From NCBI GenBank assembly GCA_035622275.1, contig DASPVQ010000006.1, positions 2,455 through 66,454 of the forward strand: a DNA stretch of 64,000 nucleotides, read 5' to 3'. Under the pieces are notes generated by a model. That model was not told the origin of the DNA. It did not search any database and saw only the letters and a list, made by a program, of their open reading frames with translations. This stretch comes from Thermoplasmata archaeon. GTDB taxonomy: Archaea; Thermoplasmatota; Thermoplasmata; Lutacidiplasmatales; UBA184. Positions 2,719-52,373 of the stretch are shown here, one piece after another. A program made the position numbers and the translations under genes. The stretch's first letter is position 1. Each line of letters begins with the position of its first letter.

Positions 2719-3663
2719 TCACCGACCGCGGCGCGCCTTCGGCGGCGCGAGGATGGCGTTGAGCAGCGCCATCCGGACCGGGACCGCGAGGAACGCCTGC
2801 CGGAAGTAGGCCGCGTGCGGGGTCGAATCGACCTCCGGCGCGATCTCGCCGGCCCGGGGCAGCGGATGGAGGACGATGAGGCGCGACTTCGCCCCGGCGA
2901 GGACGGCGTTGTCGATGCGGTAGGAGCCCGCGACCTTCTGGTACTCGCTCTCGTCCGGGAACCGCTCCTTCTGGATGCGCGTGACGTAGAGCACGTCCGC
3001 GTCGCGGATCGCTCGATGGAGCTGGTCCTCCTCGGTCAGATGGACCCCCATGTGCTCGAGCTGGTCGCGAACCTCCTCCGGGAGCCGCAGCGTCGGGGGC
3101 GACGAGAGCACGAGCTCGGCCCCGAAGAGCGCCAGCGCGTAGGCGAGCGAGTGGACGGTGCGTCCGTACTTCAGATCCCCGAGCAGGACGACCCGGAGGC
3201 CGGACAGCGTCCCGAAGGCCTCCTCCATCGTCGCGAGATCGAGCAGCGTTTGCGTGGGATGCTGGCCCGCGCCGTCCCCGGCGTTGAGGACCGGTTTGTC
3301 GGAGGCGCGGGCGGCCAGCCGGGCCGATCCCTCGTTCGGATGCCGCAGCACGATCGCGTCGGCGTAGGCCGTCAGCATCCGGACCGTGTCGTACAGGCTC
3401 TCGCCCTTGCGCACCGACGACGAGCCCGGGTCCGCGATCGTCAGGCATCGGCCGCCCAGCCGGTGTACCGCCGACTCGAACGACAGCCGCGTTCGCGTCG
3501 AGGGCTCGAAGAAGGCCATCGCGACGATCTTGTCTTCCAGCGTGCGCGCGACCTTCGTTCCCTCGGCGTAGGGGATCATGCGACGCGCGTCGGCGACCAG
3601 GGATTCGATCTCCTCGCGCGAGAGGTCGCGGATGGAGATCACGTCGCGACCGTGGAGCGACAT
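2719..3663 (-). CDS. pyrB: Aspartate carbamoyltransferase catalytic subunit
   Basis: FFEPSTRTRLSF, HPTQTLLD and HPLPR motifs; ATG at 3663 chosen as start. Confidence 0.97.
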   Translation of the reverse strand: MSLHGRDVISIRDLSREEIESLVADARRMIPYAEGTKVARTLEDKIVAMAFFEPSTRTRLSFESAVHRLGGRCLTIADPGSSSVRKGESLYDTVRMLTAYADAIVLRHPNEGSARLAARASDKPVLNAGDGAGQHPTQTLLDLATMEEAFGTLSGLRVVLLGDLKYGRTVHSLAYALALFGAELVLSSPPTLRLPEEVRDQLEHMGVHLTEEDQLHRAIRDADVLYVTRIQKERFPDESEYQKVAGSYRIDNAVLAGAKSRLIVLHPLPRAGEIAPEVDSTPHAAYFRQAFLAVPVRMALLNAILAPPKARRGR

Positions 3664-3766: not shown

Positions 3767-4690
3767 ATGGAGGCGGCGCCCTGGTCGTGGGGCTCCCGGC
3801 TCACGTTCCTGCTGGTCGTCGTCTTCTGGGGCCTCAACTACCCGTTCGTGAACCTGGGGCTCACGGCGGCCTCGCCGCTCTGGCTCGCGTCCCTGCGGGC
3901 GGGGATCGGCGCGCTCGCGACGCTGGGCGTCGTGAGCGCCCGGCACGCGTGGGGCTCCCTGGACCGGGCCGCGCGCCGGGATGCGATCGTGCTGGGGCTT
4001 CTCAATACCGGCGCGTTCTTCGGCCTGTGGTTCTGGGCGGCCCGGGAGGTCACTCCGGGCCTGGCGGCCGTGATCATCTACACCTTCCCGCTGTGGGTAG
4101 CGCTGCTGTCGCTCCCAGTGCTCGGACGGGGGCTCCACGGATGCCAGTGGGCCTCGGTCGGAGTCGGCTTCGCCGGGGTCGCCCTGATCTCGCAGCTCGG
4201 CGAGACGGGTGGCTCAAGCGTGAGCGTGCCGGCGGCCGTCGCCCTGCTGCTCGCCGCGCTCGCTTGGGCACTCGGCACGGTCCTTTTCCAGCGCCGATTT
4301 CGACCCTCGCAGCTGATGGAAGCGAACGCCTGGCAGCTGTTGGGTGGCACGTCCGGCCTCTTGGCCGCGACTCTCGCCATCGCGCCCCGGCCCCTGCCGA
4401 CCGCGACCCCGAGCCTGGTGGCGTCGCTCCTCTGGATGGGACTGCTCGGAACGGCGGCCGCCTACCTGATCTGGTTCTCGCTGCTGGCGCGGACTCCAGC
4501 CTCGACCCTGAGCGCCTATACGTTCCTCGTGCCCGTCGTCGCGCTCGCGTTCTCAGCCGCGTTCCTGGGCGAGCGGCTGGATTACCTGCAACTGGTCGGT
4601 GTGGCGTTGGTGCTCGCGAGCATCTACGGAATCGGGCGTGCCTATGGGAACCGGTCCGAGCACGATGGCCCCCGACCTCAAGCGACGTGA
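3767..4690 (+). CDS. DMT/EamA family transporter
   Basis: ~10 TM helices in two EamA-like repeats. Confidence 0.85.
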   Translation: MEAAPWSWGSRLTFLLVVVFWGLNYPFVNLGLTAASPLWLASLRAGIGALATLGVVSARHAWGSLDRAARRDAIVLGLLNTGAFFGLWFWAAREVTPGLAAVIIYTFPLWVALLSLPVLGRGLHGCQWASVGVGFAGVALISQLGETGGSSVSVPAAVALLLAALAWALGTVLFQRRFRPSQLMEANAWQLLGGTSGLLAATLAIAPRPLPTATPSLVASLLWMGLLGTAAAYLIWFSLLARTPASTLSAYTFLVPVVALAFSAAFLGERLDYLQLVGVALVLASIYGIGRAYGNRSEHDGPRPQAT

Positions 4691-4855
4691 CCTCGAGCTG
4701 TCCTCAGCGCGTTGGCCTTCGGAGGGCGGGCCACCGGTCGGGGCGACCGTTTTTGCGGGTTGCCGGCGCCGATACGTCGAGCTGGGCCTCCCCGAGTGGG
4801 GGCGGCTGAGCCGTCGGCCGCGCCGGGACCACGTTCGCCCGGAGCCCCCGGGAGA

Positions 4856-5113
4856 TCACCGAGGAGGGTCCCGGCGGTCCTCGCGAACGCCCCGCGCGAA
4901 CCCGGACGCGTAGCACAGCGGAGCCAGCGCCGCGGTGGCCACGATGGCGCCGAGTCCCGCCTCCGCCAACGATGCGGTGGTCTCGGCCGAGCCCAGACCA
5001 TACGCGAGCAACCCCGCCCCGGCAACCAGGAGGACCGCCGCCTCGACCCGAGCGTAAGCGACTATCCGACTCTGAGCTGCGTTGAGCGCAGGCGGGCGCC
5101 AGGACGCCGACAC
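4856..5113 (-). CDS. Small 2-TM membrane protein (hypothetical)
   Basis: Two hydrophobic segments; GTG start just downstream of an A-rich GGTAAAAG box. Confidence 0.4.
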   Translation of the reverse strand: MSASWRPPALNAAQSRIVAYARVEAAVLLVAGAGLLAYGLGSAETTASLAEAGLGAIVATAALAPLCYASGFARGVREDRRDPPR

Positions 5114-5240
5114 GGGCTTTTACCCGCCTTCCCACGTAGGAACGGCACCCGCCCACCCGACGACAGTCGGCGGGAGGGTTCTCCGTTGGGTCATTGGTCG
5201 TCGGGCGTACGAGTAACGCCCCGACGGTCACCCGCCGGGG

Positions 5241-5268
5241 CGGCCAGGTCGTGGTAGTAAGCCCCATT
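5241..5268. repeat. att repeat (left), duplicated rnpB 3' fragment
   Basis: CGGCCAGGTCGTGGTAGTAAGCCCCATT, identical to 9401-9428. Confidence 0.95.
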
Positions 5269-5464
5269 AGTGCGCTCACGTCAGAGAAAGTGCCCGGAAT
5301 GAGCCAAAACCAGGCCGCGACTCGTCGCATCCATCGTCGAAGTGTGCCTTCGGACACCCCCTCCTCCACCGCCCAAAGCATAGTCCAACCCATTCGGGCC
5401 CCGGGAAACCGGGGCCGCCCATCTCTTGAGGGGGAACCACCTCGCCCGAGCGAATCGCGCTCAC

Positions 5465-6580
5465 ATGTCGAAGCGTCGCCGTCAGTCGCAACCTGGGGGT
5501 CCACCAGCAGTCGCGGCGCCATTCTCACCCCCGTCAGATTCGAAGGGGTACAGGGTGCAGATCGGCTGGAATCCTCTACCCGAGGGCGTTGAGAGTGTCA
5601 AGGTAGCGCTCAGTGCCGTGCTGACCGACTCAACCGTTGACTGGGGGAAGCGCGGGCTCGACGAAATCTACGAGGCGTGCGGGCCGGAGCCTGCCAAGGG
5701 ACTTGCCGAGGGGGCGTGCAAGGTTTTGGTGAGGTCGGTTGTGCAGCCGGTAACGTTCCGGAAAGTGGGTGAAATCGAGCACTTCCGCGACGGACCCGAT
5801 ACTCCTGTTTCAGGAAAGGAGGAGGATTTCAAGGTCAGTCCCCCGAACGGGTCCTTCATCCGCCGATTCAGCGAGCCCGATCGGGCTCTGCGAATCGACC
5901 GATTGTTCTCGACAGCTGAACGAATCCGAAACTACTTGGCATACGCTTCGGCGCTCGCGCTCCCCGTAGTCGGAATACTTGTGAGCCGAGATTTTCTGTA
6001 CCCGGTTCGAATGGAATCCTCGCCGAGTCAGTACATGCCGAACGTCGGCGTTCCTTTCTCCACGGAGCGCACGCAGGAATGGTACAAGGTCTTCGAAGAA
6101 GCGTACGCTCGAACGCAGCTGCTGCTGGACACCCTCTCCCCCTCGGAACCCTCAGGGCGTGCCGTTTCCTTGGTCGGTGAGTCGATCTGGACGGCGGACG
6201 TCGAGGAGCGGTTCTTCTACGCCTGGCGGGCCCTTGAGGTCATAGCTTCCAGCGACCTGTCCCGGGCACGAGGCGAGCTGAGCGCCGGCAACCCTAAGCC
6301 CCTCGAGCCGTATCTCGAGCGGGCATCGGCCGCGCTCTCTCAAGGGCACGAATTCCGAATCGACCCCCAGGTCAGAGTCGAGGTTAGCGTGACGTCTCGG
6401 CTATCGGCGGGCGACGCCAAAATCGTACCAAAGCTCTATGAGCTGAGAAACGCGATTGCGCACGGCGAGGTCACCCCGGCTCAGCACTTGGAGGTCTTGA
6501 ATTTGAACCTCCCGATCGTCCGGTTGGCTCGCACGATCGCTGAGACGACTCTGAAGGTACAACCGGGGTCGAGCGGGTGA
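5465..6580 (+). CDS. HEPN-domain protein, ApeA/Abi-like predicted RNase
   Basis: C-terminal FFYAWRALE helix and R-x4-H motif (LRNAIAHG); ATG at 5465 (TTG at 5426 is possible). Confidence 0.75.
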   Translation: MSKRRRQSQPGGPPAVAAPFSPPSDSKGYRVQIGWNPLPEGVESVKVALSAVLTDSTVDWGKRGLDEIYEACGPEPAKGLAEGACKVLVRSVVQPVTFRKVGEIEHFRDGPDTPVSGKEEDFKVSPPNGSFIRRFSEPDRALRIDRLFSTAERIRNYLAYASALALPVVGILVSRDFLYPVRMESSPSQYMPNVGVPFSTERTQEWYKVFEEAYARTQLLLDTLSPSEPSGRAVSLVGESIWTADVEERFFYAWRALEVIASSDLSRARGELSAGNPKPLEPYLERASAALSQGHEFRIDPQVRVEVSVTSRLSAGDAKIVPKLYELRNAIAHGEVTPAQHLEVLNLNLPIVRLARTIAETTLKVQPGSSG

Positions 6581-6844
6581 AGGCCCGGCCCGGAATGTCG
6601 GCGTTACTGAAAGAATCCAGGATTCTTGACCGGGAAGGGTCTCCCGCCGGGCGCGTCTATGCCGGTTGGCCAGCGCGCTCTCCCCTGATTGAGTCGAGTC
6701 GCGGCTACTGACGTCGCAGGAGCCTCGCTCCGAATTGGCCCGGCGAACTCCCTCGCAACCCAGCCCAGATTCGACTCGCTCCCAACGGGGGCGAGGACTT
6801 CCCGAACCAGCTCGACGGTTCTACGGCCCGAAGGGGCGCAACAC

Positions 6845-7801
6845 CTACGAAGCGATCAATCCCAACGCTTCAGCGATCTCTGGCCTCTCAGACGCCCGCT
6901 GCGAATAGGGCCCGAAAATCTCGGGATCGCCTTCGTACTGGCCCTGACTCTGTCGGTGAAAGACTTGAGCGTTCGCCAGCCGCATAACCTGCGTTGTCGG
7001 ATGCCCGTGAGTTGGCGTCCCGTAGATGCCCGAATACGATTCCTGAAGCCCCTTGAGACTCATGAGTGGCAGGCTGTTGGCCTCCAGCGCCCGCCAATAG
7101 TACGCGTTCGTCCAGCGAAGATAAGGGAGCATCATGTTCCAATGCAACACCTCGCGCATGTAGGTGCCACGTTGACGGAGGATGTCACCCATCATCCAAT
7201 GGACGGCTGCGTATTCCTCGGATCGCTGCTCGCGCGCGGCACGGAACGCCGGACCGGGGACGAGCAGCCCTTCCTCCTTCGCCGCGTATCCCAGCTCGGT
7301 CAACAGACCGAGATACGCATCGAAGTTGGAGCCTGAGCGATACCGTCGCCTCGACTTTGTGACGTCAACCCGACCATCCGCCGACAGGTCGGTCAAAATG
7401 CTCTGGAGGGGCCCCATTGCGACCTCCACCACAGAAACATGAACCAGGCGCTCGAAAAGGTCGGGTAGCAGTGCGCTCTCGGCTGAACTCGCGAGTCGCC
7501 TGTAGGCACCGCGCGCGCTCACTGAAAGCTCCCTCGAGCCTGGGCCATGGACAACCCCGCGTCGACCTCGCCGTTGCACATGGTATACGAGTCCAGTATC
7601 GAGTACGAGACGTCTCGAGATCCCGCCGGGGCGGCGGGCATCCTCAACCTCCTCTTGCGTTTCCACGAAGCAAGACCATTCGTTGGGTGAACGACGCTTG
7701 ATTCTGAGATTGCGAGCCACATTCCACCGCAGGAACGCTTGCAGCGAAACATCGGATCGAACGATCGACAGCGGGGCCGACAGGGTCGTCAAGACTTCCA
7801 C
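6845..7801 (-). CDS. Hypothetical protein, possibly with winged-helix-like segments
   Basis: 318-aa ORF in the island; its start overlaps the end of the upstream ORF (7789-7801); wHTH resemblance (YLGLLTELGY...LLVPG) judged by eye only. Confidence 0.6.
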   Translation of the reverse strand: MEVLTTLSAPLSIVRSDVSLQAFLRWNVARNLRIKRRSPNEWSCFVETQEEVEDARRPGGISRRLVLDTGLVYHVQRRGRRGVVHGPGSRELSVSARGAYRRLASSAESALLPDLFERLVHVSVVEVAMGPLQSILTDLSADGRVDVTKSRRRYRSGSNFDAYLGLLTELGYAAKEEGLLVPGPAFRAAREQRSEEYAAVHWMMGDILRQRGTYMREVLHWNMMLPYLRWTNAYYWRALEANSLPLMSLKGLQESYSGIYGTPTHGHPTTQVMRLANAQVFHRQSQGQYEGDPEIFGPYSQRASERPEIAEALGLIAS

Positions 7802-8472
7802 TCCCGATCCAGGTCGAGCTGGGTTCCCCCACCAGCGGCGCGCTCAATCCAAATGACGTATTTCCCGGTTTTGGCCTGCTCCCAGAGCGTCACAAGCCTC
7901 GGCGTGGGTATCTGAATTACACCCCTGGCAGGCGTAGATGAACCTTTCTTTGCGCGCGCTTTGAAAATTCCGCGGCCGGCAAGCTTCGACGCGAACGAAT
8001 CGAAGACCACCGATGTGATTCGATCGGACTGCATCAGTATCAGGTCGTGGTCCAGCCCGCGGTAGTTGTCCCCCTTGGTGGTTACCTGCGCCCAATACTC
8101 CGACGAGACTCCAATGATAGGATAGGAGGTATCCGGATTGCGAAGCACGGCCTGAACCAACGGCCACCGAGCTCTGTCGACGTCGCTCCGGGCCCTGATG
8201 CGGAAGGCTTGGGGGAGCTTCCGCTGGACCTTCGGTAGCCACTTCGCTGGCCCCGGCTGTACAGGTGCTGCAGCGTTGGGGAGGATCGCGGCGATCAATT
8301 CGTCGTAGGGAATTCGTAGTCCGGGAACAGCGAGGCGGTCCGAAAGTTCGTGAAGGATGTTGAAACATTGCGCAACCTCGCAGTCGGTCTCGACGTGTTG
8401 AAAGGAAAATCGACGTACAACTTGGCCCGGCGGACGGAGGCTCTTATCCTCGGAACCGATTCCGTCGGCCAC
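7789..8472 (-). CDS. Putative C39-like (papain-fold) cysteine peptidase
   Basis: Q-x4-DC motif (FQHVETDCEVAQC); downstream H-hydrophobic...D motif (DHDLILMQSD...VFDSF) matching the C39 Q/C/H/D layout. Confidence 0.55.
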   Translation of the reverse strand: MADGIGSEDKSLRPPGQVVRRFSFQHVETDCEVAQCFNILHELSDRLAVPGLRIPYDELIAAILPNAAAPVQPGPAKWLPKVQRKLPQAFRIRARSDVDRARWPLVQAVLRNPDTSYPIIGVSSEYWAQVTTKGDNYRGLDHDLILMQSDRITSVVFDSFASKLAGRGIFKARAKKGSSTPARGVIQIPTPRLVTLWEQAKTGKYVIWIERAAGGGTQLDLDREWKS

Positions 8473-8676
8473 CCCGACTTACGCTCCGGACTCTGGGAGA
8501 ACGGTCTTGTGTTTGTACCTTCGCATGGCGGCGGAGTCGGAGCGGATCCCACTTGCTCCTCGTGACCGCTGAGAGATGCTCTCTTGGCGTGGATAGGGCG
8601 CTGCTAGAAGCCGGCCGGCCGACTCGGCAGCGCTGGCAAGCCTGCGGGACTCGAGGGCGACCGTCTGACCCGCGAG

Positions 8677-9417
8677 ATGGTCGAGGCCTACGCCCACGAC
8701 ACGTCGCTCGCGCCCACGACCCGTGCGATGAACCTGGGCCTGGTCCGGTCGTTCCTGCGATGGACCGGAAACTCGCTGGCCGACAGCAAGCGCCTGTGGA
8801 AGGGACCGCGACCCGTCGCGACCCGCCGGTACTGGCTCACGAAGGAACAACTGGCCGCCGCGCTCGGAAACGCACGGGGGCGGGAACGCGTGGCGATCGC
8901 GTTGGCGGGGCTGAACGGCCTGCGCAGCGCCGAGATCCGAGAGCTGCGGGTCGAGAACTGCCGGATGGACCTGCCCGACCCGCGGCTGGTCTTCCGCGGC
9001 AAGGGCGACAAGATCCGCGACATCGCCATGAACCGGACGTTCGTCTGGCCCGAGCTGCTGCCCCCGGTGACCGGGAAGAGCGCCAAGGACCGCGTCTATC
9101 CGTTCGGCCGCACGACCCTGGACCGCGACGTGAAGGCGGCGTGCCGACGGGTCGGGCTACCCGCCCGATCGCCCCACGACCTGCGACGCAGTTTCGGTCG
9201 GATCGCCTACCAGGCAGGGGTGCCGCTGAACGTGATCCAGGGGATCTATGGCCACGCGGACCTGGCGGAGACCAGCTACTACATCGGAACCGACCAGGCC
9301 GAGCAGCGCGCCGGGATCGACCAGTTCTCGAGGGCGTTTGGGGTTCCCGGCCCGGAAACGGGTGTTTCCGGGCCGGCGGCCCGTCATTTTACTGACGTGC
9401 CGGCCAGGTCGTGGTAG
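8677..9417 (+). CDS. Tyrosine recombinase/integrase (short N-terminus)
   Basis: Catalytic set R (GLRSAEI), K (GKGDK), H-x-x-R (HDLRR), H (YGHAD), Y (TSYY); stop codon lies inside the att repeat. Confidence 0.92.
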   Translation: MVEAYAHDTSLAPTTRAMNLGLVRSFLRWTGNSLADSKRLWKGPRPVATRRYWLTKEQLAAALGNARGRERVAIALAGLNGLRSAEIRELRVENCRMDLPDPRLVFRGKGDKIRDIAMNRTFVWPELLPPVTGKSAKDRVYPFGRTTLDRDVKAACRRVGLPARSPHDLRRSFGRIAYQAGVPLNVIQGIYGHADLAETSYYIGTDQAEQRAGIDQFSRAFGVPGPETGVSGPAARHFTDVPARSW

Positions 9418-9428
9418 TAAGCCCCATT
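9401..9428. repeat. att repeat (right), within the intact rnpB 3' end
   Basis: Identical to 5241-5268. Confidence 0.95.
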
Positions 9429-9714
9429 CTGGTTCAGGCAGCATTCGACTGCGCGCTCTCCTCGACGGTCGGGGGAACGCTTCCTCCCGTCGGTCAGGGC
9501 TTGCTTCCGGGGAGACGGCCGTTTCATCACGTCCCGGCGGATCCTCCGGTGCAGCACCTTCACGGTGCCGCCGGGCTGTGTCGTGTCTGCTCCGTGGCTC
9601 GGACTCTCGCCCGTCGGGCTCCCACCCGACCCCGTGTTCCCCGAAGTGGGGACTTTCCTCAGCGGCCGGCCGTTGCCGGCGCGGACCACCGTCAGCTGCC
9701 CTCCACCTCCTGGC
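9403..9714 (-). ncRNA. rnpB: RNase P RNA (archaeal type A)
   Basis: Minus strand carries GAGGAAAGTCC (9660-9650), TGAAAC, AAGCAAG, GAATGCTGC and AACCAGAATGGGGCTTA; ends pair as P1 (GCCAGG..GTGG / CCAC..CCTGGC); ~310 nt. Confidence 0.93.
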
Positions 9715-9794
9715 GCGCCGGGCAGCGCGCGGGCTTCCAAATAGCCTCGGGTCGGGCCCGGAAGGCGGAAGAACCCGCGACGGGTCGCTCGCGC

Positions 9795-10493
9795 GTGCCG
9801 CCCGCAGCCGAGGATCGCAGCGGCGCCGACGGACCGGCGCTCGTTCCCTGCCTTCTGCTTCGCAAGGGTCGGGTCTATCGTCCCGGGCCCGACGGTCCGG
9901 TCCCGGCGATGCGGTCGAACGGATCGGCCTTCGACATCTTCGACGTGATCGACGCCCTGAGTCCTCGCTACCCTCGACTGTACCTCGCGGACCTCGACGG
10001 CCTGGCGCACAACAACCCGCAGCTCGAGTACATCCAGGAGCTTTCTCGCGACATGCCGCTGTGGGTCGACGCCGGCCCTCGTAACGCCGACGGGGCGATC
10101 GACATCATCGTCGCGGGCGCAGAGAAAGCGGTTCTCTCCAGTGCGTACCTCGAGGGCCTGCGCGAGCTCAAGCGGGCGTGGCGTCTTTCCACCGAGCTCG
10201 TGTTCGAGATCGAGACCGGTAGCGGCGTCCCGGCGGCCGACGGTGAGCGGTGGCCGGGCGCCGACCCGATCTCCCTCGCGCGAGCCGCCCGCGCGGTGGG
10301 TCCCGCCCCCATCGTCCTTTCCCCTCGCGGCGTCGATCCCGACTGGAGCCTCGTCCGCTCGATCGCGGGCGACGGGCCGACCTGGGTCGATGGGTCGTTC
10401 GAGGTTCGAGACGCCTCCCGTCTCGCCGAGGTCGGCGCGGCCGGAGGTATCTTCCACATTGACTCGATCTTCGCGGAGCTCGACGCCCGATGA
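9795..10493 (+). CDS. HisA/HisF-related TIM-barrel protein
   Basis: LVPCLLLRKGRV, LYLADLDG, LWVDAG and GAEKAVL motifs; GTG at 9795 (the longer track ORF runs antisense through rnpB). Confidence 0.75.
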   Translation: MPPAAEDRSGADGPALVPCLLLRKGRVYRPGPDGPVPAMRSNGSAFDIFDVIDALSPRYPRLYLADLDGLAHNNPQLEYIQELSRDMPLWVDAGPRNADGAIDIIVAGAEKAVLSSAYLEGLRELKRAWRLSTELVFEIETGSGVPAADGERWPGADPISLARAARAVGPAPIVLSPRGVDPDWSLVRSIAGDGPTWVDGSFEVRDASRLAEVGAAGGIFHIDSIFAELDAR

Positions 10494-10511
10494 GCCGGGC
10501 CGCTCCGTCCG

Positions 10512-10580
10512 CCGACGCGCGATGATGAGAAACAGAACCAGCTGAACCGTGAGGAGTAATGGGCGGGCTGAGCGCGTCGG
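10512..10580 (+). ncRNA. C/D-box 2'-O-methylation guide sRNA
   Basis: C box ATGATGA 10522-10528; D' CTGA 10542-10545; C' GTGAGGA 10549-10555; D CTGA 10568-10571; 13- and 12-nt guides; perfect 9-bp terminal stem CCGACGCGC/GCGCGTCGG. Confidence 0.88.
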
Positions 10581-10679
10581 CCCCCGCGCCGGAGACCGAG
10601 CGTCCGCGGCCACGCGATCGCCCGGTTCGCACGAATCGTTTTAGACTCGCAGACGGTCGGCGGGCCTCGTAGGGCGGCG

Positions 10680-12599
10680 ATGGCGGAACTGGCGACGATC
10701 ACCGTCCGGTTCCCGGACGGGTCCCACCGCGCGGTTCCGCCCGGACGCACCGCGGGCGAGCTGCTCGCAGAGTGGGAGCCCGCCCGCGCGGGCGACTTCC
10801 TGGCGGCCGTCTGGGATGGCCGGACCGTCGACCTATCGAGCCGATTGGATCGGGATGCCGCGCTCGCACCGCTCACCTTCCAGGACCGAGCCGGGCGCGA
10901 CATTCTCCAGCACTCGGCCGCTCACCTGGTCGCGAAGGCGCTCACCGAGACCATCCCGGAGGCGAAGCCCACGCACGGGCCGGCGACCGACGAGGGGTTC
11001 TTCTACGACTTCGACGTGCGGCCGCTCGTCCCCGACGATCTCGATCGCATGCGCGAGGCGATGGCCCGAGCGATCGACGCGCGCGAACCGTACGTGCGGA
11101 GGGAACTTCCTCGCCCCGAGGCCGAGCAGCTCTTCTCGAGCAACCCGTACAAGCTCGGCTACCTCGCGGAGGCCCCGGCGGACGAGCCCGTGTCCGTCTA
11201 CGAGACCGGGGCCTTCGTCGATCTCTGCCGCGGGCCCCACGTCCCGGACACCGGCTGGCTGAAGGGGGTGCACATTCTCGGCTTCTCGGGTCTCGAACGT
11301 GGCGCCACCGAATCCGCCGCGCCCCTGCAGCGAGTGCGCGGCGTGGCCTTCCCGACCCGGCACGAGCTCGAGGTCTACCTCAAGCAGCGCGCCGAGGCCG
11401 AGGCGCGCGATCACCGGGTGATCGGCGCCAAGCAGGAGCTGTTCCTCTTCCTCGACGAGATACCGGGCTTCCCGTTCTGGCTCCCGAACGGGATGGCGCT
11501 CGTCCGCGAGCTCGAACGGTACGTGACCGAGCACTTGCGGCGGGCCGGTTACGCTGAGGTCCACACTCCGCTGCTGTTCCCACAGTCGGTCTACGAGACC
11601 AGCGGGCACTGGGAGCACTACCGGGAGAACATGTTCCTGACCGAGCTCGATGGCCGGACGTTCGGCTGGAAGCCGATGAACTGCCCGGGCTCGATGCTGA
11701 TCTTCCGCTCGCGCGCCCGCAGCTACCGGGAGCTCCCGCTCCGCCTCGCCGAGTTCGCGCCGCTCCACCGCCTCGAAGCGAGCGGCACGCTCCACGGCCT
11801 GACGCGGGTGCGCGAGCTCGTCCAGGACGATGCGCACGTGTTCGTCACCGAGGAGCAGGTCGAACCGGAGCTGCGGATCCTCCTCGACTGGATCCGGGAG
11901 GCGTTCGCGACGTTCCGCCTCGAATGGTCGTGCGAGCTGTCCACGCGTCCGGCCAACTTCCTCGGCGAGGCCGCGGACTGGGATCGGGCCGAGGCGACCC
12001 TGGACAAGGTGCTCCGGGAGTCCGGGGTTCCCTACCGGGTCTCGCCGGGAGAGGGCGGGTTCTACGCGCCGAAGATCGACCTCCACGTTCGGGACTCGCT
12101 CGGCCGACCCTGGCAGACCGGCACGATCCAGCTCGACTACCAGATGCCGCGGCGCTTCCACCTCGAGTACCAGGGACCGGATGGGCAGCTCCACATGCCG
12201 GTCGTCATCCACCGGACGATCCTCGGCAGCTGGGAGCGCTTCCTCGGCGTTTTCATCGAACACTGCGCCGGGCGCTTCCCTCCGTGGCTCGCACCCGTCC
12301 AGGTCCGTGTGCTGCCGGTCACCGATCGCCATGCGGATGCGGCGCTCGGACTGGCCGAGGAGCTGCGCGCCGAGGGCCTGCGGGTCGAGGTCGCCGCGCC
12401 GGACGAGTCGATCGCGAAGCGGGTGCGCACCGCGGAGGTGGATCGGATCCCGTACGTGCTGGTCCTGGGCGACCGTGAGATCACCGAGGGCCTCGTCACG
12501 GTACGGAGCCGGGGCTCGAAGGAAACGAAGACCGTCTCGCGCGGTGAGTTCGCGGCGAGCGCCCGCGAGCGCATCCGCCGTCGGGAGTTCGACCCCTAG
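10680..12599 (+). CDS. thrS: Threonine--tRNA ligase (bacterial-type with TGS and editing domains)
   Basis: HSAAH, DLCRGPH, KPMNCPG, FYAPKID, WQTGTIQLD and VIHRTILGS motifs. Confidence 0.97.
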   Translation: MAELATITVRFPDGSHRAVPPGRTAGELLAEWEPARAGDFLAAVWDGRTVDLSSRLDRDAALAPLTFQDRAGRDILQHSAAHLVAKALTETIPEAKPTHGPATDEGFFYDFDVRPLVPDDLDRMREAMARAIDAREPYVRRELPRPEAEQLFSSNPYKLGYLAEAPADEPVSVYETGAFVDLCRGPHVPDTGWLKGVHILGFSGLERGATESAAPLQRVRGVAFPTRHELEVYLKQRAEAEARDHRVIGAKQELFLFLDEIPGFPFWLPNGMALVRELERYVTEHLRRAGYAEVHTPLLFPQSVYETSGHWEHYRENMFLTELDGRTFGWKPMNCPGSMLIFRSRARSYRELPLRLAEFAPLHRLEASGTLHGLTRVRELVQDDAHVFVTEEQVEPELRILLDWIREAFATFRLEWSCELSTRPANFLGEAADWDRAEATLDKVLRESGVPYRVSPGEGGFYAPKIDLHVRDSLGRPWQTGTIQLDYQMPRRFHLEYQGPDGQLHMPVVIHRTILGSWERFLGVFIEHCAGRFPPWLAPVQVRVLPVTDRHADAALGLAEELRAEGLRVEVAAPDESIAKRVRTAEVDRIPYVLVLGDREITEGLVTVRSRGSKETKTVSRGEFAASARERIRRREFDP

Positions 12600-52300: not shown

Positions 52301-52373
52301 AGCCGCCAGAGAGGATCGAACTCCCGACCTGCTGATTACAAATCAGCCGCTCTCCCAACTGAGCTATGGCGGC
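52301..52373 (-). tRNA. tRNA-Thr(UGU)
   Basis: Cloverleaf with GCCGCCA/TGGCGGC acceptor stem, anticodon loop TTTGTAA and TTCGATC T-loop; no encoded CCA, no intron. Confidence 0.97.

Follow-up and report, generated by a model that had tools for sequence, protein, structure and literature searches.

A window of 64,000 nucleotides from a Thermoplasmata archaeon (GenBank assembly GCA_035622275.1, contig DASPVQ010000006.1, positions 2,455 to 66,454 of the forward strand) contains what is very probably a 4,160-bp integrative element, put by a tyrosine recombinase site-specifically into the 3' end of rnpB, the gene for RNase P RNA, of a Lutacidiplasmatales-like Thermoplasmata from peat. Unless a relative is named, coordinates are those of this window. 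The inserted DNA, of lower GC content than its surroundings, is bracketed by a direct repeat of 28 nt, CGGCCAGGTCGTGGTAGTAAGCCCCATT, whose two copies (5241-5268 and 9401-9428) agree exactly; by our own estimate, a 28-mer would be expected to recur exactly by chance inside about 7 kb only about 1e-9 times. The rnpB gene occupies 9406-9711 on the minus strand and matches Rfam family RF00373 over model positions 1-288 with 169.8 bits (E 1.4e-48, gathering score 84). Because this full-length match ends at 9406, the repeat consists of the final 23 nt of rnpB (9406-9428) and 5 nt past its 3' end. The 23 nt include the P1 3' strand as well as GGGGCUUAC, part of the conserved CR-V / P4 3' strand region. 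An initial annotation of the window had assigned the repeats to the end of rnpB, and both the exact repeat and the RF00373 match bear this out. It had also proposed a check against RNase P covariance models, which the gene passes at full length, although each end lies 3 nt inside the 9403-9714 then suggested.

Under the mechanism we propose, the attachment site of the element (attP) would carry a 28-nt core with the same sequence as the final 23 nt of rnpB and the 5 nt that follow. When attP recombined with the chromosomal site, rnpB would be left complete, because attP brings the end of the gene with it. The present rnpB would then be a chimera, with a host 5' part and a P4/P1 3' strand donated by the element, followed by a hairpin trailer that also belongs to the element, while the original 3' fragment with its native trailer would have been carried to the far end. 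The integrase gene, ending within the core and converging on rnpB, would not be split by integration. We infer that the position of strand exchange lies in the core and that the intermediate is circular.

Features of the element and its attachment site, with the evidence for each (window coordinates)
Feature	Position	Strand	Basis
Native host rnpB 3' trailer with small hairpin, displaced 4.16 kb from rnpB	5205..5240	-	Contiguous with core and rnpB in relatives
attL core: displaced copy of the rnpB 3' end (23 nt) and 5 nt beyond it	5241..5268		Exact repeat; metagenome (X1) unitigs break here
Conserved element end, putative attP arm	5269..5404		Common to distal cores of otherwise different elements
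Cargo ORF1	5465..6580	+	No family match; R-N-A-x-A-H-G motif
Cargo ORF2, 318 aa	6845..7801	-	Family of ~310-aa proteins
Cargo ORF3, 227 aa	7789..8472	-	Three homologues
Tyrosine integrase (Xer-like), 5'-truncated	8677..9417	+	PF00589, phrog_216
Integrase 3' tail, putative second att arm, two hairpins	9335..9400		DNA-level conservation, folding
attR core: putative element-donated 3' end of functional rnpB	9401..9428		Exact repeat; junction 32-mer depth 21 in X1
Complete rnpB	9406..9711	-	RF00373, 169.8 bits

Occupied and empty sites in one population and in relatives

One public sequencing run, designated X1, contains the element: a 2018 peat metagenome in the form of k=31 unitigs, in which 90-100% of the words of the region are present and which may be the sample from which the window was assembled. 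Contigs and sequence blocks from relatives are labelled L001, L002 and so on. Unitig ends in X1 coincide exactly with the 28-nt core. Depth is 45.7x over the left flank (4500-5268), 8.6x over the element (5240-8260), 58.3x over rnpB (9401-9715), and 39.7x over the right flank. Two 31-nt unitigs, of depth 50 and 55, map once to each side of the element: at 5239-5268 (followed by 1 nt) and 5240-5268 (followed by 2 nt) on the left, and at 9401-9429 (preceded by 2 nt) and 9401-9430 (preceded by 1 nt) on the right. These words, GG+core+C and G+core+CT, therefore read from the left flank through a single core into rnpB and represent the junction of an empty site. The 31-mer of the occupied attL (5239-5269) has a depth of 9. 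From these junction depths, about 15% of the genomes with this flank are occupied and about 85% are empty.

The same empty configuration occurs in relatives L024, L022, L029, and L113, where the equivalent of 5209-5240 adjoins the core and rnpB directly; in L024, a metagenome-assembled genome (MAG), the 3' part of rnpB is 100% identical over 78 nt. A fifth relative, L083, shows full empty synteny, in the order PyrB, EamA, trailer, core, rnpB, HisA-like gene. Identity of the trailer to that of the window is 88-93% in these relatives; in all, at least five related MAGs carry a native trailer directly at rnpB. Since the trailer is contiguous with core and rnpB in relatives, 5205-5240 must be viewed as the native rnpB trailer, and the insertion as 4,160 bp. 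A trailer of native type, GGCCGCCCCGGCG..CGCCGGGG.GT, also stands 3' of the distal cores in L009, L005, L003, and L092. The empty attB that the initial annotation had suggested looking for is thus found both in the metagenome and in related MAGs, and comparators have the uninterrupted site expected for a genomic island of the Islander class.

One further X1 unitig (depth 6.8) links 9715 to 10373, skipping 657 nt from just past the 5' end of rnpB into the HisA-like gene, and may stem from a strain variant or a related organism.

The integrase

The open reading frame (ORF) at 8677-9417, on the plus strand, encodes 246 amino acids and matches PF00589 (E 1.3e-17, 64.6 bits against a cut-off of 27.1) and phrog_216, annotated 'integrase' (1.6e-24). 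In our alignment A3 the catalytic residues R141, K167, H225, R228, and H251 are invariant and Y260 is nearly so; the window protein has the motifs LRSAEIR, GKGDK, HDLRR, GHAD, and SYY, in line with the residue set R..K..HxxR..H/W..Y of tyrosine recombinases. Its TAG stop codon (9415-9417) lies inside both the repeat and rnpB, the two genes converging with a 12-nt overlap. The view that an integrase abuts an intact rnpB therefore holds for the junction and for rnpB, which is full length, but the integrase is 5'-truncated relative to all homologues. About 25 homologues were found, with 39-87% identity and typically 290-330 residues, one of them labelled Thermoplasmata archaeon. Overall they range from 288 to 354 residues and all start MPTGQRWW...VRLGF..., a conserved N-terminus that is absent from the window; full-length versions occur in L001, L004, L010, and L011.

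Two other assignments for this protein were rejected. Archaeal XerA (NF040815) is the best NCBIfam match, but the window protein scores 55.7 bits and the full-length homologue P0008 72.2 bits, far under the cut-off of 220, so that the family is Xer-like and not the XerA chromosome-dimer resolvase. An SSV-type partitioning integrase does not fit either: what the ORF shares with the core is limited to its final 17 nt, stop codon included (9401-9417), and reads alike in attP and attR, and a tblastn search found no integrase fragment on the attL side.

A clade of integrases associated with the rnpB core

Elements with related integrases occur at rnpB in two orientations, which we call type A and type B. 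In type A, which covers the closer homologues on every contig with sequence beyond the integrase gene (L001/L002, L004, L010, L011, L012, L114, L105, L038, and L070), the integrase converges on rnpB with an 11-12-nt overlap. Type B elements (L009, L003, L005, L006/L007, and L092) have their integrase gene at the end away from rnpB and in the same direction as rnpB; a core in the rnpB sense begins 44-58 nt beyond the gene, and a trailer of native type comes next. In a maximum-likelihood tree of 100 family members, a branch with support 99/97 separates 21 integrases from the 79 others. The 21, from Lutacidiplasmatales-like Thermoplasmata, comprise 16 of type A, together with L005, L009, L003, L006, and L115; L003 and L006 are type B, and the L115 contig ends at the integrase gene. 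Every member of this clade with a readable flank adjoins an rnpB core. The proposal that this integrase is specialised for rnpB gains from this phylogeny, and the suggested search for rnpB 3' duplications with adjacent integrases in other archaeal genomes found them in many Thermoplasmata assemblies.

Complete elements with unrelated or different cargo are likewise bounded by repeats of the rnpB tail. That of L004 spans 5.2 kb, encodes a MazE-like gene and a resolvase, and has a repeat of 92 nt at 84% identity containing an exact 29-nt core; that of L009 spans 4.25 kb with an exact 27-nt repeat; and the 7.4-kb element of L055+L081 has a more distant integrase, of a 273-aa type, 60 nt from rnpB. 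The rnpB core pattern is absent from IMG/VR, where relatives of the integrase reach at most 43% identity and mostly 28-34%.

Outside the 99/97 branch there is a clade adjacent to tRNA-Thr genes (98/89), and many members have no RNA gene nearby. A mini-element in L008 holds little besides a 228-aa integrase, 42% identical to that of the window, which lies between repeats of the 5' part of tRNA-Thr (9275-9307 and 10688-10720 of L008), 1.4 kb apart. A separate clade (100/100) consists of Xer-like genes about 0.9-1.0 kb upstream on the 5' side of rnpB, beyond the HisA-like gene, in L019, L027, L038, L061, L072, L104, and L160 (in the last, integrase at 3830-4906 and rnpB at 5937-6242); these could represent a resident Xer or a second element family that targets that side.

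Prevalence at the 3' end of rnpB

The rnpB-tail pattern GGCCAGGTNNNNGTAGTAAGCCCC was found in 100 stretches among species-representative genomes. Among the 80 matches with listed titles, all but two are labelled Thermoplasmata, Thermoplasmatales, or Candidatus Lutacidiplasmatales/Lutacidiplasma silvani, the others being labelled Methanobacteriota archaeon and 'bacterium'. Prevalence was surveyed in 61 blocks that contain rnpB and at least 1.2 kb downstream of it. An integrase of the family abuts rnpB in 8 blocks, only a 25-60-aa integrase tail overlaps the rnpB end in 11, an extra copy of the rnpB tail stands 1.0-2.75 kb downstream without an integrase in 5, and 37 have nothing at the 3' end of rnpB. 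A footprint is thus present in about 39% of 61 species-level genomes. Another 16 blocks have cores without a readable rnpB 3' end, some of them distal att sites and some with rnpB cut at the end of the block or contig.

The five islets between rnpB-tail copies that lack an integrase (L025, L040, L090, L093, and L099) bear on a point raised by the initial annotation, for which relatives with the duplication but without integrase or cargo would refute an integrative element. Such duplications do exist; they occur alongside integrase remnants, however, and share the conserved arm described below, and therefore read as decay. In L090 (rnpB at 1476-1781) the last 189 nt of the gene are duplicated at 92% identity 1.1 kb downstream (2742-2930), as against cores of 23-28 nt elsewhere. 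L093, with cores at 718-741 and 3491-3514, shows the opposite order: a native-type trailer comes after rnpB, and what is left of the integrase tail lies 2.75 kb off, at the distal core, which suggests that later insertion of an integrase-less or other type of element pushed an older one outward.

Putative attachment arms and pairing with the host strand

Beside the left core, the arm at 5269-5404 reads, in the rnpB sense, GGCTCATTCCGGGCACTTTCTCTGACGTGAGCGCACTAA and then the core. Elements that otherwise differ, in L040, L004/L051, L025, L087, and L094, have this arm beside their distal core; the blastn matches of L040, L087, and L094 to window 5217-5416 are about 76-79% identical. At the opposite end, the integrase tail (9335-9400) is near-identical DNA in the window, L010, and L011, where the remainder of the gene is about 80% identical. 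Folding in the rnpB sense gives it a pair of strong hairpins (-43.6 kcal/mol, z -5.1), and L009 has a similar hairpin module after rnpB with no integrase next to it. Because the DNA is near-invariant and the L009 module lacks an integrase gene, the conservation looks like a DNA or RNA constraint and not a protein constraint. Judged from these patterns, both arms are candidate attP arms with putative integrase-binding sites, and the hairpin arm, replacing the native trailer, could serve as a terminator for two convergent genes.

The four variable positions of the core all fall in P1. In occupied loci the strand donated by the element pairs with the 5' strand of its host (TGG/CCA in the window, CAG/CTG in L001, CGG/CCG in L004), with 7-8 of 8 pairs formed, the same as in unoccupied genomes.

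Cargo and surroundings

The two flanks and the integrase gene have a GC content of about 71%, as against about 60% over 5300-8500, a drop of about 11 points across the cargo. None of the three cargo ORFs has a match in Pfam, PHROGs, PADLOC, or NCBIfam. ORF1 is open from a TTG at 5426, but the ATG at 5465 fits the MxKRR start of its homologues. These number 18, all unnamed or hypothetical, and share an invariant R-N-A-x-A-H-G motif that may be a HEPN-like Rx4H motif. An AlphaFold model of ORF1, with a mean predicted local distance difference test score (pLDDT) of 89.5, had no fold match in the PDB (best E 0.45). ORF2 belongs to a family of proteins of about 310 residues with 85 representatives; two of the 32 aligned members have one isolated weak Pfam match each. 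A sequence-profile search of the PDB with ORF2 returned nothing better than E 0.05, and a fold search with its AlphaFold model (pLDDT 93.5) found only local winged-helix-like matches at E 0.01 or above, none significant. ORF3 has just three homologues, at 55-57% identity, and overlaps ORF2 by 13 nt, and the two therefore probably form one operon. A contig of 4,362 nt from the Joint Genome Institute (JGI) carries identical ORF1 and ORF3.

The cargo includes no genes for replication, capsid, or conjugation. With no PHROG match in the cargo and no core pattern in IMG/VR, neither viral hallmarks nor relatives in viral collections mark the element as a provirus. Related type B elements carry other genes: in L006 (1768-6531) a ThsB-type TIR protein, an MmeI-like N6-methyltransferase/restriction enzyme, and a uracil-DNA glycosylase (UDG), and in L003 (901-5913) a DUF3644 protein, an M78 peptidase, an AAA_18/adenylosuccinate-synthetase-like protein, and a DUF7002 protein. 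This content suggests defence-type cargo in the related elements, and the window cargo is probably a defence or addiction module.

Host genes flank the element, with aspartate carbamoyltransferase (PyrB) and an EamA transporter on the left and a HisA/HisF-like gene and threonyl-tRNA synthetase (ThrRS) on the right. The sole tRNA gene detected in the window (52301-52373, minus strand, 67.8 bits) is unrelated to the element. Between the HisA-like gene and ThrRS, L010 (2939-2995) and L011 (2628-2684) have near-threshold matches to a C/D-box small RNA model (snoPyro_CD, 42 bits against a gathering score of 45); the equivalent region of the window would be about 10500-10680.

Alternative explanations

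Five points weigh against reading the locus as an element that integrates site-specifically at rnpB. Recombination at rnpB is a proposal made from sequence. About 57 N-terminal codons are missing from the integrase: the ORF starts at what is residue 58-59 of 304-aa homologues and so lacks the N-terminal core-binding (SAM-like) domain, while the DNA upstream of about 8653 is unrelated to that of homologues and contains an in-frame TAG at 8605-8607. The window copy is thus unlikely to be autonomous and would depend on a full-length relative acting in trans. The junction evidence from X1 consists of words of 31-32 nt and their depths, since the run is kept as k=31 unitigs. The k-mer for the junction of an excised circle (GC+core+A) was not seen in X1, where it would have aligned to 9399-9428 over 30 nt. 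Finally, the join between cargo and integrase is weakly supported there: the cargo unitig at 8.6x stops at 8260, depth is 2.2x over 8247-8397, no unitig covers 8398-8599, and 8600-9206 stands at 3.9x.

Some of these points would also fit a fixed and decaying remnant, left by one insertion in a sub-lineage after which the integrase lost its N-terminal DNA-binding domain, with the polymorphism in X1 reflecting two co-existing strains and not continuing integration and excision. That account shares the origin proposed here, differs only on present mobility, and in our judgment has about an even chance of being right. The truncated integrase and the missing circle junction favour it, as does the frequency of decay in place among relatives, where integrase tails and integrase-less islets occur in 11 and 5 of the 61 surveyed blocks. 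The two cores are nevertheless still identical over 28 nt, and X1 contains a 2.1x unitig that joins 8655 to intact N-domain sequence, that is, a full-length integrase variant in the same sample, which could act in trans. The gap in depth between cargo and integrase is due either to a truncated variant that is rare or to a join made in assembly. In the latter case the window would be a partial chimera, with cargo (5269-8260) and integrase 3' part (8600-9417) drawn from different variants at the same site, which we consider rather improbable. A sharp GC change near 8500-8600 would agree with such a join, as would the attR junction 32-mer (9399-9430), which several element variants have in common; one of these is represented by a 374-nt unitig at 4.3x whose integrase end differs. 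Variants at 2-4x, however, are expected to drop out of unitigs from which rare k-mers are discarded, and the depth of the attL junction (9x) agrees with that of the cargo. Either way both junctions are unaffected: were the join chimeric, both ends would still be junctions of rnpB-targeting elements, and the main conclusion would not change.

A resident integrase at rnpB that captures integrase-less cassettes, in the manner of an integron, could account for the five islets without an integrase, for the host-like GC of the integrase gene beside lower-GC cargo, and for the serial insertions indicated by older integrase remnants beyond the distal core in L004/L051 and L093. We reject this platform as very unlikely. 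The empty site, in X1 and in relatives, has no integrase either, its native trailer abutting the core, so the integrase is part of the inserted unit; and type B elements have their integrase at the end remote from rnpB. A repeat that arose by chance or by replication slippage next to an unrelated integrase is scarcely credible and was also rejected, given that the repeat ends coincide with the GC shift, the unitig breaks, and the empty-site junction, and that the same architecture recurs in many independent assemblies.

Discussion

The locus documents integration at rnpB well, through the empty site found in its own population, the dedicated integrase clade, and the two orientations of attP. 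The initial annotation had not recognised rnpB as a described archaeal att target, and a literature search, with most subscription journals outside its reach, turned up no publication that describes rnpB as an att site, which is an absence of evidence only. The mechanism of integration is of the tRNA/tmRNA type already known; what differs is the target.

With more doubt than belief, we offer a broader proposal: that the 3' end of rnpB is a regular but overlooked class of att site with dedicated integrase clades, at which the sole RNase P ribozyme is made a chimera of host and element and its native trailer is replaced by a two-hairpin module; that the core must co-vary with the P1 5' strand of the host, as a lock on host range; and that the element may take over 3'-end formation or termination of rnpB. 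If true, this takeover would give the element a hold on an essential gene. The donated segment is no passive tail: it holds strands of the catalytic core (P4) and the closing helix (P1) of an essential ribozyme, and element and host must therefore stay compatible in sequence. Target choice by the integrase and host range of the element become directly testable through that compatibility. Should rnpB be a regular target, a class of archaeal islands has been mis-filed or missed by mapping of islands and prophages centred on tRNA and tmRNA genes, and integrases for genome engineering would gain a universal, single-copy, highly conserved site. The cargo of L006 and L004 and the HEPN-like motif in the window hint that the rnpB site may be a hot spot for defence islands in soil Thermoplasmata.

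Among archaeal integrases, the pNOB8 type is non-partitioning and the SSV type partitioning, the latter with attP inside the integrase ORF, so that the gene is split on integration. The present element resembles the pNOB8 type in architecture, in that the integrase stays whole after integration and short direct repeats derive from an RNA gene; it differs in its target, rnpB, and in an att core that extends over the final five codons and the stop codon of the integrase gene.

Phage phiEf11 integrates in ffs, the gene for 4.5S or signal recognition particle (SRP) RNA, described in 2025 as a novel non-coding-RNA att site in a paper whose known non-coding RNA targets are tRNA/tmRNA and csRNA only, RNase P RNA not being among them (PMC12540744). 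Both systems use a single-copy essential structured-RNA gene other than tRNA or tmRNA as attB, and the phiEf11 core, at about 27 nt, is likewise close to the integrase gene; in contrast, phiEf11 is a tailed phage with a bacterial host and a different RNA target. The TIGER/Islander resource recognises only tRNA/tmRNA, protein-coding, and intergenic target classes (PMC12424338). It has no class for other RNA genes, and rnpB islands would therefore be filed as intergenic.

The closest parallel is with islands that target tRNA and tmRNA genes, whose mechanism has been described (PMC4383910). As characterised through its citation in PMC12540744, the Islander class (Williams 2002) comprises genomic islands and proviruses at tRNA/tmRNA 3' ends. 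Like these, the element encodes a tyrosine integrase, has an attP that duplicates the 3' portion of a structured-RNA gene, and would regenerate its target; the repeat and the covariance model together indicate that rnpB is completed by element sequence and that the far boundary is the displaced fragment. Tandem and decayed copies at one site are a further likeness, as is the neighbouring clade of the integrase family at tRNA-Thr. The target sets it apart: it is the RNase P ribozyme gene, matched by RF00373, and not a tRNA gene (tDNA) or tmRNA gene, as in islands of the tDNA type. Unlike in such islands, the donated P4 and P1 3' strands must here pair with host 5' sequence about 290 nt away.

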